Below, one piece after another: positions 18,001 to 23,895 of a stretch of 23,895 nt of DNA (positions are counted from its first letter, which is position 1; every line of letters begins with the position of its first letter). A program made the position numbers. The DNA comes from a virus (Duplodnaviria; Heunggongvirae; Uroviricota; Caudoviricetes): IMG/VR virus record IMGVR_UViG_2529292728_000036; one strand, 5' to 3'.

Positions 18001-21000
18001 TGCCCGTTTACCTCCCGGGATTTCATGAAGTTCCGGCTCGGTGGTTTCGAGGCCATAAAGTCGGCTTACATGGCCCAGGTGCAGTACAGCATGTGGGTGA
18101 CGCGAAAAGATGCCTGGTACTTTGCCAACTATGACCCGCGCATGAAGCGTGAAGGCCTGCATTATGTCGTGATTGAGCGGGATGAAAATTACATGGCGAG
18201 TTTTGACGAGATGGTGCCGGAGTTCATCGAAAAAATGGACGAGGCACTGGCTGAAATTGGTTTTGTATTTGGGGAGCAATGGCGATGAAGCATCCTCACG
18301 ATAATATCCGGGTAGGCGCGATCACTTTCGTCTACTCCGTTACAAAGCGAGGCTGGGTATTTCCCGGTCTTTCTGTTATCCGAAATCCACTGAAAGCACA
18401 GCGGCTGGCTGAAGAGATAAATAATAAACGAGGGGCTGTATGCACAAAGCATCTCCTGTTGAATTAAGAACGAGTATCGAGATGGCACATAGCCTTGCTC
18501 AAATTGGAGTCAGGTTTGTGCCAATACCAGTAGAAACAGACGAAGAATTTCATACGTTAGCCGCATCCCTTTCACAAAAGCTGGAAATGATGGCGGCGAA
18601 AGCAGAAGCAAACGAGAGAGACCCGGCATGACAACAACAGAATGCATTTTTCTGGCAGCGGGCTTCATATTCTGTGTGCTTATGCTTGCCGACATGGGAC
18701 TTGTTCAATGACACCTCAGCAAGAAAACGCCCTTCGCAGCATTGCCCGTCAGGCTAATTCTGAAATCAAAAAAGCCAGACAGCAGTTTCCGGATAAAAAC
18801 GTCGATGACATTTGCCGTAGCGTACTGAAGAAGCACCGCGAAACGGTAACGCTGATGGGATTCACACCGACTCATTTAAGCCTGGCAATCGGCATGTTAA
18901 ACGGCGTTTTTAAGGAACGGTGAACATGAAAAGCAAAATCATCAGGGAGCTACAGGCTCCTTTTTTATTATTCGCATTTACCCTCAAGCGTATTAACCAA
19001 CAATTCAGGGATTAATGAAAGATGGCGGACATCATTGATTCAGCATCAGAAATTGAAGAATTACAGCGCAATACAGCAATAAAAATGCGTCGTCTGAACT
19101 ACCAGACTATATCCGCCACTCATTGTTGTGAGTGTGGCGATCCCATAGATGAACGAAGACGCCTGGTCGTTCAGGGTTGTCGGACTTGTGCAAGTTGCCA
19201 GGAGGATCTGGAGCTTATCAGTAAACAGAGAGGTTCGAAGTGAGCGAAATTAACTCTCAGGCACTGCGTGAAGCGGCAGAGAAAGCCGGTGAAGATAAGT
19301 GGCAGGCTAAAAAAATAAATGGTGATTTTTTCGTTATTCGTCACGGTAGTTATACAAGACAGCATGGCTACACATCGTATCAACCCATTGCGGAGATTGA
19401 TTGTAAGCCAGTCCGGGATTTTGTTGCCAAGGCTAATCCGGCTACCGTGCTGGAATTACTGGATGAACTGGAAGCAGCAAAAAAGCGCATTGCAGAACTG
19501 GAAGCGCGGGAAATACTGCTCCCGGAACGTAGCAGCATGCTTCATCGAACAGATTTTCACGATGATTACCAAACGGTAATGGCATACAAAGTTTCTGAAG
19601 TCATCGATGCAATCCGCGCTACTGGCATTCGCATCAAAGGAGAGTGAGATGATTCACTACCACGGTGGGCCTATTACTCCTGATACGTGCGCAATGAGAG
19701 CATGGAAAGGGCGACATGCGTTTATCAGTTTTGCGCATTCAGGCCAGATCAATCTCGCGGCTGAATACTGTCAGTCGTTCGCGCTGGACAACGGTGCATT
19801 CACCGCCTGGAAAGCAGCTGGCAAAAACAAAATCGACTGGAGCGATTACTACGAGTTTGTTGCTCGCTGGAAGAATCACCCAGGATTCGATTTTGCCATT
19901 ATCCCGGATGTTATTGATGGCGGAGAGGAGGAAAATGATGCGCTTCTGAATGAGTGGCCTCACGGAAAACTAGCTGGCGTTCCAGTGTGGCACGTGAATG
20001 AAAGTGACGAGCGATTTATTCATTTGTGCAATGAGTTTCCGCGAGTGGCTATCGGTAGTTGTGGCGACTATGACGTAAAGCGCCCAACTCTTGCGGTAGC
20101 CAGAATGAAAGACCTGATTCGTCACATTGTTGATGGGCATGGTCAGCCGGTTACGAAACTACATGGATTGCGCATGTTAAATCCGCTGATATTCACAAAA
20201 TTACCCTTAGCCAGCGCAGATAGTACGAACGTCGCTCGAAACATCGGTATTGATAAAGCCTGGTCTGGGGCTTATGCACCTGCAAGTAAAGAGACACGCG
20301 CAGCATTAATGGTAGAACGGATTGAGGCACACAATAGCCCTGGTTCTCTTGCGTATTGTGAACAACGCGACCGCTTTGAAATGCAATTGCAACTAGCACT
20401 TTAAGGACTAACAAATGACCACTATTACCAAAGAACGTATTGAATTGTTCATTAAAAATCCGCTTGAAAACGGGCTTACTCGTGGCGAACAAATGGAACT
20501 GGCACGAATTGCACTGGCATCACTGGAACGCGAACTGATTCGCCACGAGCATGCCAAATGGTCTGACTCCACATTTGGCTGCGTTGGCCCCATTGGTCCA
20601 CTGAAACACCTCTCAAAAGAGGCTCTGGAAGCCGCAGCCGAACCAGACGATCTCAGCGAGTGGGCTGATATGCATTTCCTGTTGTGGGATGCACAGCGCC
20701 GTGCTGGCATCAGCGATGCTGAAATTACCGCTGCTATGGAAGATAAATTGAAGATCAACATGGAGCGCCAGTGGCCTGAACCAAAAGATGGTGAGCCTCG
20801 CTTGCACATTAAAGAACCCGGCAACTCTCCGGTAATTCCGGATGGTTTATCCACGGTATGCGCTGAGGCTTATCAGGTTGTAGGAGTTATGGCAGATGCG
20901 CTTGGTGTATTCGGTGATGCAGCAGTACAGAAAGTTCTGGATAACCTGTCACAGCAAAAACTTGTTCACAGAGATGTGCTGCCGTTCTCGCTTCCGGTAA

Positions 21001-23895
21001 CTCCGGATGGTTGGATAAGCTGTAGTGAGCTAATGCCGGATAAGTTAATTCCGGTAATGGTCATGTATGAAGACGGTGAGATGTGGTCTGCAATGTGGAA
21101 TGGCAATCGCTGGGGTGATGGCACCGAATATCCGGATCCGCACTCAGTTACGCACTGGCGTGAAATGCCAGCAGCACCGCAGCAGGAGGTGAAGTGATGG
21201 ACTCCTTCGCGAAATATACGATTATTGACTGGATAGCATTCCTTCAGGTTTTGCTCATCTGGTTTTATATGGCTTACAGGAGTGGGCAGTGGATTGTCAG
21301 TGTAGCCTGTAGCAAGGGATGGCGTTGGTGGAACCGAAAGAATAAAAAAGCGCTGGCCTTGGATTCGTTTTACGAAGCATTCAATCTTAACAGTCTTCAG
21401 CCTGGTTATGTCATTGTAGTCACCACTCAAAGCGGCATGACCATTCAGATTCATAAACCAAAAGAGGAAAAATGATGTGGCCTATATGTGTTAATTGCGG
21501 ACGGATGTGCCTATCTGGATGGTGCCGAAAGTGCGACAAATGCACGAAGAAAAGACAATAACAATCCTCGCACTGACGGGGATTTCTTTTATCTGAACTC
21601 GCTACGGCGAGTTTTGTTTTATGGAGATGATTATGGCCTGTTCAACATTCAACCCTTTAACGTTACAGAAATACCAGCCAGACCCTGAAGATTTATGCTC
21701 ACTGTGTGGCGGAAATCATGGTAAAGCTGCCATGATCGAATGTAAGGACAAAATCCACATATGCCTTAATTGCGTTGATGTCCTCGTTGATATCAAAAAT
21801 GAAAGAGAAGATAAAAAGCGTAGCGAGGCTATTCGCGCCTTAGATTCATGGATGCGAGATGGGTATAGTGCTGCGCAAATTTATGACTTAGCCATTTCAA
21901 AAGGCGAAATACCAGGTGTGCGAATCGAATAAGAAGCGCACTCAAGCATCTTTTGGGGAAATCACAAATGCACTTCCGAGTCACAGGTGAATTGAATGGA
22001 GAACCATTCAACAGAGTTATCGAAGCAGAGGACATCAACGACTGCTATGACCACTGGATGATATGGGCGCAGATAGCACATGCAGACGTAACCAATATTC
22101 GAATTGAAGAACTGAAAGAACACCAAGCCGCCTGATGGCGGTTTTTTTTATTGGAGACAAGAAATGTCAGATTTGGCTATGAAGGTTTTGAAATGGCAAT
22201 CGACTGGCGATGTTGGCATCAGTAGCGCAACTCTTGCCTCAATCGCATGTGGACTGAAAAAGAATATCTATGGTCATCACTTCGGCGCTCCCCATGACGC
22301 AGCCGATTTCAGACGATGCGTTGCACTTGTTGAGCAGATTCCAGAAATCAGAGATTCATTCAACAAGGTTGCAAAGCGCGTTCCGGCATTCAAAGGAATC
22401 CTCAACGAATGGGATTCCCTCGTTGCTCTGTTGAAGTCTGAAATGAAGATACACGGAAACAAAGCACCAGAGACTTACAGAAGAATCAGCGAGCTACGCA
22501 AGGACTAACCATGAAATAACACCGCCTCACACTCGGTGAGGCCTGTTCATTGCTCAATGATATCCAGACCTACCATCGCCGCATCAATGCGGCTTTTTCT
22601 TGCGTGTAATTGCGGAGACTTTGCGATGTACTTGACACTTCAGGAGTGGAACGCTCGCCAGCGACGCCCAAGAAGCCTTGAAACAGTTCGTCGATGGGTG
22701 CGCGAATGCAGGATATTCCCTCCTCCGGTTAAGGATGGAAGAGAGTATCTGTTCCACGAATCAGCGGTAAAGGTTGACTTAAATCGACCAGTAACAGGTA
22801 GCCTTTTGAAGAGGATCAGAAATGGGAAGAAGGCGAAGTCATGAGCGCCGGGATTTACCCCCTAACCTTTATATAAGAAACAATGGATATTACTGCTACA
22901 GGGACCCAAGGACGGGTAAAGAGTTTGGTTTAGGCCGAGACAGGAGGATAGCAATCACTGAAGCAATACAGGCCAATATTGAGTTACTCTCAGACAGCGG
23001 ACGCAAATCACTAATAGACAGAATTAAAGGCGGTGACGCAATCACTCTTCATGTGTGGCTTGACCGATATGAAACAATCCTCACCGAAAGGGGGATCAGG
23101 CCGAAAACTCTACTCGACTACGCCAGCAAAATCAGGGCAATCCGAAGAAAATTGCCGGACAAACCGCTCACTGACATATCAACGAAAGAAGTGGCAGCAA
23201 TGCTAAACACCTACGTAGCAGAAGGTAAAGCAGCTTCCGCAAAATTAATCAGGTCAACCCTTGTTGACGTTTTTCGTGAAGCAATAGCCGAGGGGCATGT
23301 GGCAACGAATCCGGTAACAGCAACCCGTACAGCAAAGTCAGAAGTAAGGCGCTCAAGGCTGACAGCTAATGAGTATGTCGAGATTTACCATGCAGCCGAA
23401 CCTCTCCCTATCTGGCTAAGGCTGGCGATGGATTTGGCCGTCGTTACAGGGCAGAGAGTCGGCGATTTGTGCAGAATGAAATGGTCAGACATAAACGACA
23501 ACCATCTTCACATTGAACAGAGTAAAACAGGGGCTAAACTCGCCATTCCGCTAACGCTAACGATTGACGCGCTCAATATCTCATTGGCTGATACACTACA
23601 GAAATGCAGGGAGGCCAGCAGCAGTGAAACTATAATCGCATCAAAGCATTACGATCCTCTTTCCCCGAAAACAGTATCAAAGTATTTTACAAAGGCGAGA
23701 AATGCATCTGGACTCTCATTTGATGGAAACCCGCCAACATTCCATGAACTGCGTAGCCTGTCAGCGAGGCTATACCGGAACCAGATTGGCGATAAATTTG
23801 CTCAACGTCTTCTCGGGCATAAATCAGATTCAATGGCGGCGCGGTATAGAGACAGCCGTGGACGGGAATGGGACAAAATTGAAATCGACAAATGA

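Follow-up and report, generated by a model that had tools for sequence, protein, structure and literature searches.

A compact zinc-less DpdA-like transglycosylase homologue in the leftward early operon of a Shiga toxin 1a-converting prophage

The question raised by this locus is whether a small open reading frame (ORF) of a lambda-like prophage encodes an enzyme that places 7-deazaguanine bases in DNA and whether the gene next to it takes part. The locus lies in the IMG/VR virus record IMGVR_UViG_2529292728_000036 (Caudoviricetes), a stretch of 23,895 bp that was analysed over its whole length and is referred to below as the window; it is a 100% match to part of the Shiga toxin 1a (Stx1a)-converting prophage inserted beside torS in an E. 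coli O111:H11 chromosome. An earlier note on this DNA had proposed that two adjacent genes form a hidden DNA-modification module, the first encoding a protein of the tRNA-guanine transglycosylase (TGT) fold resembling phage DpdA and the second a DUF550/DUF551-like protein. Both were recovered on the + strand at the positions given there, 19649-20404 (251 aa; ORF A) and 20415-21197 (260 aa; ORF B). ORF A is a DpdA-like protein of the TGT superfamily, for which the phage-specific sequence comparisons provide strong evidence; its family was found to be known already as predicted DpdA, and the proposed partnership with ORF B was not supported.

Homology and predicted active-site residues of ORF A

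The gene and its predicted active-site codons are located as follows.

19649-20404, + strand: ORF A, 251 aa, compact zinc-less DpdA-like DNA-guanine transglycosylase homologue ('hypothetical protein' WP_000582235.1 in PGAP)
19637-19642, + strand: Shine–Dalgarno sequence AAGGAG of ORF A, 6 nt before the ATG at 19649, read from the sequence
19787-19789, + strand: codon of Asp47 in the motif L-D-N-G-A-F, predicted general acid/base, aligned with Iggy D69 and 9g D72 (hhalign)
19907-19909, + strand: codon of Asp87 in the motif I-P-D-V-I-D-G, predicted base-recognition Asp, aligned with Iggy D111 (hhalign)
20162-20164, + strand: codon of His172 in the motif K-L-H-G-L-R, aligned with His196 of 9g DpdA
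20219-20221, + strand: codon of Asp191 in the motif S-A-D-S-T, predicted catalytic nucleophile, aligned with Iggy D212 and 9g D215

The mechanical ORF list placed ORF A at 19607-20404 (265 aa). The ATG at 19649 was taken as the real start because of the spacing of the AAGGAG sequence, the stop codon of the upstream Ea22-like gene (TGA, 19645-19647, 1 nt before this ATG) and the homologues, all of which begin with MIHYHGGP and are ~250 aa long. The position of the Ea22-like stop 1 nt ahead of the ATG suggests translational coupling of the two genes.

ORF A matched PHROG_887, 'queuine tRNA-ribosyltransferase', with E 1.8e-102; the same family was matched by the DpdA1 proteins of phages 9g, Iggy and Dp-1 and by the proteins of phages 7-11 and HK106 (E 1e-66 to 1e-102 across the set). 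A profile of 51 ORF A family sequences was aligned using hhalign with a profile of five DpdA1 proteins (Iggy, 9g, Seurat, Dp-1 and Rosebush), which come from phages with 7-deazaguanine DNA or close kin of these, giving a probability of 99.5% and E 2.9e-22 over 168 columns. The alignment spanned residues 23-198 of ORF A and 42-219 of the 312 residues of Iggy DpdA, with the motifs LD(N/S)GAF, (P/L)D-x-I, H-x-x-E, IG(S/G), K-x-H-G and S-x-D-S in register. Searches of 50,697 phage records with tblastn showed 92% identity to ORF A in BTP1, 67% in SfI and 36% in HK106; identity to the DpdA of Salmonella phage 7-11 was 36% (E 2e-24) and that to the characterized DpdA of Iggy 26% (E 1e-5). The protein of Vibrio phage Athena1 is 67% identical. 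At E ≤ 1e-3 the family comprised 806 clusters at 50% identity.

Scans of ORF A against Pfam (PF01702 included), NCBIfam and PADLOC returned no match even at E ≤ 10. Validated DpdA1 proteins, scanned as a control, were also missed by these libraries, the exception being 9g DpdA, residues 156-218 of which weakly matched positions 200-259 of the PADLOC DpdA model (E 0.02); the silence of the libraries on ORF A is thus uninformative and is not evidence against homology. When the PDB was searched by sequence (phmmer and hmmsearch), neither a TGT nor a DpdA was retrieved with ORF A, the profile of its family, the DpdA of Iggy or the DpdA1 profile as query, and hhalign gave no match of the family profile to the single E. 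coli TGT sequence; E. coli TGT itself retrieves almost only E. coli and Z. mobilis variants from the PDB, and these comparisons did not include a diverse TGT or bacterial DpdA profile. The net charge and pI of ORF A were similar to those of the compared DpdA1 proteins and do not discriminate as a hint of DNA binding.

The three TGT-like motifs that the earlier note had read in ORF A are present in the order that it gave (DNGAFT at residue 47, VAIGSCGD at residue 133 and ADSTNVARNIG at residue 190). The alignment with the DpdA1 profile also supplied the catalytic aspartates whose absence would have told against a transglycosylase: Asp47 (acid/base), Asp87 (base recognition) and Asp191 (nucleophile) all align with invariant DpdA1 aspartates, Asp47 being invariant in the five compared proteins. 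His172 apparently corresponds, from the same alignment, to the 'conserved histidine at position 196' of Hutinet et al. that is without a counterpart in DpdA2, and a further histidine lies in the motif W-H115-V-N-E. Among 82 full-length representatives drawn from the 50%-identity clusters, D47 was retained in 79, D87 in 79, H115 in 80, H172 in 81 and D191 in 77. Given 806 clusters with near-invariant catalytic residues, the family appears to be under selection as an enzyme.

The general acid/base of bacterial DpdA is D95 and its nucleophile D256, with D130 and H181 serving to read the base; the D95A and D256A substitutions abolish exchange (PMC10164549). The counterpart Asp residues of Z. mobilis TGT are D102/D156/D280. 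Asp47 is inferred to be the counterpart of D95 of bacterial DpdA and Asp191 that of D256, an equivalence to TGT and bacterial DpdA drawn from motif and order and not from direct superposition.

An AF2 model of ORF A based on a 40-sequence alignment (pLDDT 81, pTM 0.83) shows alternating β and α elements and has the TGT-type (β/α)8 TIM-barrel fold. D47, H115 and G136 end strands, H172 lies within a strand and D87 and D191 follow strands, so that in the model every conserved residue is placed at a strand's C-terminal end or directly behind it, where the active sites of TIM barrels lie. A Foldseek search with the model retrieved generic barrels only.

No CxCxxC zinc motif was found in ORF A, the cysteines of which are at positions 14, 41, 127, 138 and 237, in agreement with the missing zinc module of the earlier note. 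The motif was absent from 51 of 51 ORF A family members and also from five of five phage DpdA1 proteins. The structural zinc site CXCX2CX22H is found in bacterial DpdA and in TGTs (PMC10164549); its absence from the phage DpdA1 proteins as well means that the zinc site does not define the phage branch.

Relation to known systems and precursor supply

In the survey of Hutinet et al. (2019; PMC6884629), 182 viruses were classified according to the deazaguanine genes that they carry. The third of the resulting groups, which is also the largest, consists of 76 phages with 'DpdA but no G+ or preQ0 biosynthesis protein homologs' that 'could rely on preQ0 synthesized by the host', and Supplementary Data 1 of that work lists in this DpdA-only group BTP1 (SIU02687), SfI (YP_009147480), HK106 (YP_007151699), 7-11 (YP_004782407), Athena1, SEN1, SPN3UB and PEAT2 (PMC6884629). 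All of these phages except SPN3UB were among the hits of ORF A. The ORF A family is therefore already known as predicted DpdA, with near-identical orthologues catalogued in 2019, and phage annotation pipelines already name it queuine tRNA-ribosyltransferase; the description of the system as hidden does not hold. Mainstream annotation lags: the exact ORF A protein, found on no fewer than 1000 contigs and carried by 204 of the 5426 complete E. coli genomes, is still labelled 'hypothetical protein' throughout (PGAP, UniProt). An intact copy is present in 201 of those 204 genomes. A copy encoding a 92%-identical protein was noticed in a 1719-bp GenBank record named 'Staphylococcus phage SA 1298 Kay' (OR850331.1), which suggests a mislabelled or contaminated deposit.

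ORF A shares with the DpdA-only phages the same family and in part the same gene, a length of ~250 aa and the lack of phage que genes, and is orthologous to the listed members. In the temperate members, as in the window, the gene occupies the early accessory region between exo or erf and xis. The ORF A copy differs from the catalogued ones in belonging to an Stx1a-converting E. coli O111:H11 prophage that is not listed in PMC6884629; the 7-11 protein comes from a large virulent phage. In the literature, no experiments on singleton DpdAs of lambdoid or P22-like phages were found.

The phage DpdA1 proteins (Enterobacteria phage 9g, Escherichia phage CAjan/Seurat, Pseudomonas phage Iggy, Streptococcus phage Dp-1 and Mycobacterium phage Rosebush) have in common with ORF A the family PHROG_887, the Asp-Asp-His-His-Asp motifs, including the conserved His (His196 of 9g), the profile similarity and the lack of CxCxxC. 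They are longer (306-385 aa, against 251 aa for ORF A and 234-270 aa for its family), with a longer C-terminal region, and ORF A lacks this full-length architecture after the nucleophile. Their genes adjoin folE-queD-queE-queC, as in the Iggy locus, a linkage absent from ORF A, and their phages replace 0.1-30% of G. The ORF A clade carries Asn48 (70 of 82 representatives) and Arg175 (74 of 82), where DpdA1 has Ser and Gly.

Bacterial DpdA, that of the S. Montevideo Dpd system (PDB entry 7UI4), has 413 aa, the insertions Ins1, Ins2, Ins3 and Ins8 and the CXCX2CX22H zinc site (PMC10164549), none of which is present in ORF A. It requires the DpdB ATPase (PMC10164549), and no sequence-level match of ORF A to bacterial DpdA was found. 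Cap10, a TGT-like protein of type IV cyclic-oligonucleotide-based anti-phage signalling systems (CBASS), is encoded in an operon with a CD-NTase and the QueC-like Cap9, whereas the neighbours of ORF A are phage early genes and neither of these was found among them.

Genes for precursor synthesis were sought by phmmer with the FolE, QueD, QueE and QueC proteins of Iggy. None was found in the window, in the complete 36.9-kb genome of phage Stx1a_EH2115 (locus L093), which carries an identical gene, or in 80 close IMG/VR loci, and the PGAP annotation of the identical region likewise contains no que genes; the absence of queC/D/E-like genes asserted in the earlier note is thereby upheld and dependence on a host precursor is supported. 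In 80 distant loci (40-50% identity, 1.09 Mb of flanks) a single FolE at a contig edge and a single marginal QueD (L140, E 0.004) were seen. The ORF A clade is consistently a singleton, and with no phage-encoded preQ0 pathway any 7-deazaguanine would have to come from the host. When 9g DpdA is expressed alone in E. coli, dPreQ0 from the host pool is placed in plasmid DNA at 0.03-0.3% of G (PMC6884629), which is a precedent for the use of host precursor, as is the trace modification (see below) of phage 7-11, itself a singleton of this clade.

The FolE homologue at a contig edge (L128:12172-12444, E 3.6e-14) is the sole clear match to the Que pathway near any of the 160 dpdA-like loci; it lies 1.5 kb downstream of the dpdA-like gene, ends at the contig end and may belong to a host flank rather than to phage DNA.

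Proposed activity and its alternatives

The explanation judged probable, with moderate confidence, is that ORF A is an active stand-alone DNA transglycosylase of the DpdA family, a minimal TIM barrel that swaps G for a host-made 7-deazaguanine. The analysis shows homology, conserved catalytic residues and the lack of pathway genes and of a conserved partner; from here on, activity, substrate, timing and benefit are inferred. Judged from gene order (leftward early operon, with exo on one side and xis/int on the other), the gene would be expressed by N-antiterminated transcription, and the protein would be made from the leftward transcript once the prophage has been induced or a cell infected. 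If it works as its homologues bacterial DpdA and TGT do, ORF A would flip the target G out of duplex DNA; Asp191 would attack C1' and displace the guanine with formation of an intermediate in which enzyme and DNA are covalently joined, with Asp47 acting as general acid/base and Asp87 together with His115/His172 reading the base. A free 7-deazaguanine would then resolve the intermediate, as in the double displacement of TGT. The base would be drawn from the host queuosine pathway and would most likely be preQ0, possibly preQ1, 7-carboxy-7-deazaguanine (CDG) or 7-amido-7-deazaguanine (ADG). Modification would probably be sparse (well below 1% of G) and confined to particular motifs, and the expected benefit is that progeny DNA would be partly protected from restriction.

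Several points weigh against such an activity. The nearest datum for the compact ~250-aa clade is the trace of the ADG deoxynucleoside (dADG) in 7-11, 50 per 10^6 nt or 0.02% of G; the DNA of the other DpdA-only phage that was analysed, Mycobacterium phage Orion, which belongs to a different singleton group and has a host without preQ0, contained none (PMC6884629). In the similarity clustering of Hutinet et al., singleton DpdAs from phages of gamma-proteobacteria group apart, and whether they have diverged in function was left open there (PMC6884629). ORF A is 55-130 residues shorter than the compared DpdA1 proteins, with ~60 residues after the nucleophile, and has no counterpart of the Ins8/zinc extension with which bacterial DpdA binds DNA. 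Near the pocket, Asn48 and Arg175 are substitutions conserved in this clade and could indicate a different substrate, and modification at far below 1% of G may leave DNA too thinly marked for protection.

If the enzyme is active in this way, many temperate enterobacterial phages, Shiga-toxin phages included, could modify their DNA with one small gene and host preQ0, which would affect phage host range, sensitivity to restriction and to nucleases that recognize 7-deazaguanine DNA (GmrSD-like GrwAB) and the reading of sequencing data from such phages. As the orthologues were catalogued as DpdA-only in 2019, the added value is modest; it consists of the occurrence of the gene in complete E. coli genomes, the singleton status of the clade with an intact catalytic set and the finding that a DUF550 partnership can be dropped.

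The main rival is an active TGT-fold enzyme of diverged function, which might exchange or excise bases in host or competitor DNA, use another base (CDG or ADG), remove 7-deazaguanine or act on a protein or RNA target like Cap10. In its favour are a structural match of ORF A to Cap10, the residues Asn48 and Arg175 peculiar to the clade, the shortness of the C-terminus and the unexpected dADG of phage 7-11. However, the lead of Cap10 over bacterial DpdA is only 0.7 Z, genes for a CD-NTase or a Cap9/QueC-like protein are absent near ORF A, and the sequence similarity is far stronger to the DNA-modifying DpdA1 proteins than to anything else; the nucleophile, acid/base and base-reading residues are all kept, as exchange requires, and overall charge and pI are like those of DpdA1. 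A diverged activity of this kind is thus considered unlikely, if far from negligible.

The compact clade (~250 aa, zinc-less, Asn48/Arg175) occurs widely among the temperate phages of Enterobacterales, Vibrio, Aeromonas, Pseudomonas and Acinetobacter, Stx-converting phages included. It is suggested only tentatively, as a doubtful extension, that it may form a functionally distinct subfamily of DpdA, dependent entirely on the queuosine pathway of the host, that either makes a sparse motif-specific mark (possibly CDG or ADG and not preQ0) on the DNA produced in lytic growth or applies TGT chemistry to a non-canonical target. Were this so, the que genotype of the host would influence the spread of Stx phages and their sensitivity to restriction and to modification-dependent defences.

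A two-gene module, in which the DUF550 pyrophosphohydrolase of ORF B would reshape the dGTP pool and so favour replacement of G by 7-deazaguanine, has to be weighed against the distribution of the second gene, which has the following features.

20415-21197, + strand: ORF B, 260-aa mosaic EaA-like protein, neighbour of ORF A
20538-20825, + strand: DUF550 (PF04447), dATP/dGTP pyrophosphohydrolase (MazZ-like) domain, ORF B residues 42-137, E 2.2e-41, 140.5 bits against a gathering cutoff of 23
21009-21182, + strand: DUF551 (PF04448) domain, ORF B residues 199-256, E 8.4e-16, above the gathering score

The domain content given for ORF B in the earlier note was thus correct, and the acidic metal-binding motifs E69xxE72 and E82xxD85, which align weakly with MazZ (7ody), are consistent with a predicted MazG/MazZ-like pyrophosphohydrolase domain. 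The two genes are co-oriented and 10 nt apart, the order Ea22–dpdA-like–DUF550 recurs in Salmonella phage BTP1, and DUF550 enzymes, characterized in Z-genome phages only, hydrolyse dGTP and dATP and there support another base-replacement system. ORF B has PF04447 and the ExxE...ExxD motifs in common with the MazZ/DUF550 proteins of such phages (S-2L MazZ, 7ODY; DUF5664-DUF550 of Acinetobacter phage SH-Ab 15497); unlike these, its DUF550 is fused to an EaA-type N-terminal module and DUF551 and has no PurZ, DatZ or DpoZ context, PurZ- and DatZ-like genes being absent.

Co-occurrence speaks against the module. DUF550 adjoins the dpdA-like gene in nine of 22 loci at ≥97% identity, in two of 15 at 90-97% and in none of 41 at 80-90%, that is, in 11 of 78 close relatives, and in none of 80 distant ones (40-50% identity); it was not found beside the homologues of any annotated distant phage checked (SfI, HK106, Vibrio D105, Acinetobacter AB3P2 and Salmonella 7-11). 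The gene after the ORF A homologue usually begins 11 nt past the stop codon and its body falls into 45 clusters among 75 loci, the common part, often shared, being the first ~40 residues (MTTITKE...ARIALASLE). With adjacency this sparse and the downstream gene a mosaic, adjacency reflects shared mosaic DNA and not a functional unit. Every known DpdA reaction takes place after replication, with a free base (not a dNTP) and completed DNA as substrates, and has no need of a dNTP hydrolase. DUF550 was rejected as a functional partner on both grounds, and the module is considered very improbable: ORF B stands beside ORF A as an unrelated gene, its product being one of the numerous EaA-like mosaic proteins that are interchangeable. 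Clustering of 2417 neighbouring ORFs (160 loci, within 2.5 kb) gave a chained EaA-like mosaic family, Ea22-like proteins and lineage-restricted neighbours, and no universal companion of the dpdA-like gene.

Least credible of all is that ORF A has no transglycosylase activity, whether as an inert or degenerating passenger gene or as an unrelated TIM-barrel protein of small size: the blank library scans, the generic barrels from Foldseek and the 'hypothetical' label in PGAP and UniProt would fit it, but the same libraries miss validated DpdA1 proteins bar the weak 9g match, the catalytic residues are near-invariant across the family and the gene is intact in nearly all complete E. coli genomes that carry it.

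The early operon around ORF A

The remaining features of the operon are given below; all are on the + strand.

Leftward early operon, + strand, in lambda order: cI, N, IS3-family insertion, cIII, kil, gam, bet, exo, small accessory genes, xis, int
13355-13738, + strand: N
14008-15221, + strand: IS3-family insertion (orfA 14008-14334, orfB 14331-15221, programmed frameshift)
17608-18288, + strand: exo
19240-19647, + strand: Ead/Ea22-like gene directly upstream of ORF A (PF13935, E 2.6e-17)
22822 to the end of the window, + strand: int
18944-18962, 21563-21614 and 22125-22144, + strand: terminator-like hairpins

ORF A and ORF B are located in the accessory stretch from exo to xis, within a block of five genes (19022-21475; TraR/DksA-like, Ea22-like, ORF A, ORF B and DUF4752) with tight or overlapping junctions. 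No promoter-like site was found on the + strand of this block, and the hairpins at 18944-18962 and 21563-21614 bracket it. These features fit co-transcription from the early leftward promoter, and because of the bracketing hairpins expression of the block should depend on N antitermination. Terminator-like hairpins numbered 14 in the early-operon stretch, against 4.6 expected from shuffles.

The Shine–Dalgarno sequence of ORF B (AAGGA, 20403-20407, 7 nt before the ATG at 20415) overlaps the stop codon of ORF A. In the PGAP annotation ORF B is divided into a 5' piece, labelled a pseudogene, and a 201-aa protein whose start falls within DUF550; this split was rejected on account of the Shine–Dalgarno sequence and of the exact 260-aa product, which is on record in 42 contigs, and looks like an annotation artefact arising from the mosaic N-terminal module.

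Two short coding stretches accompany the dpdA-like gene as junction modules (window 19600-19647 and 20415-20540; loci L005-L084). Upstream proteins that are not related in other respects share the ending ...A(A)GI(R/G)(I/V)KGE, the tail of the Ea22-like protein in the window being ...AGIRIKGE, and many downstream proteins of the MTTITKE type also end in the same DUF551 tail; the junction modules resemble joints at which the lambdoid mosaic recombines. Of the 80 distant relatives (loci L095-L174), 14 (for example L172:9182-11389) encode, no more than 2.5 kb from the dpdA-like gene, a ~650-aa protein whose N-terminal motif, FFCGGGGAGTG, is DNA-methyltransferase-like, and a small ASCH-like protein is near the dpdA-like gene in ~13 distant loci. 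These neighbours may point to DNA-modification neighbourhoods that are lineage-restricted.

The IS3-family element lies inside the leftward operon, immediately 3' of the gene for an N-like antiterminator (127 aa, apparently intact), and cuts short the ORF that follows (flank 15266-15580); the downstream early genes, ORF A, xis and int included, must therefore be transcribed across it. About 5% of the window is missing from closely related prophages, and this may possibly be the same element. Among the products of the prophage's nin region are a phage N6-adenine DNA methyltransferase (6496-7023, − strand) and a Lar-family restriction-alleviation protein (7423-7659, − strand), so that the phage already has two recognized anti-restriction functions besides ORF A.

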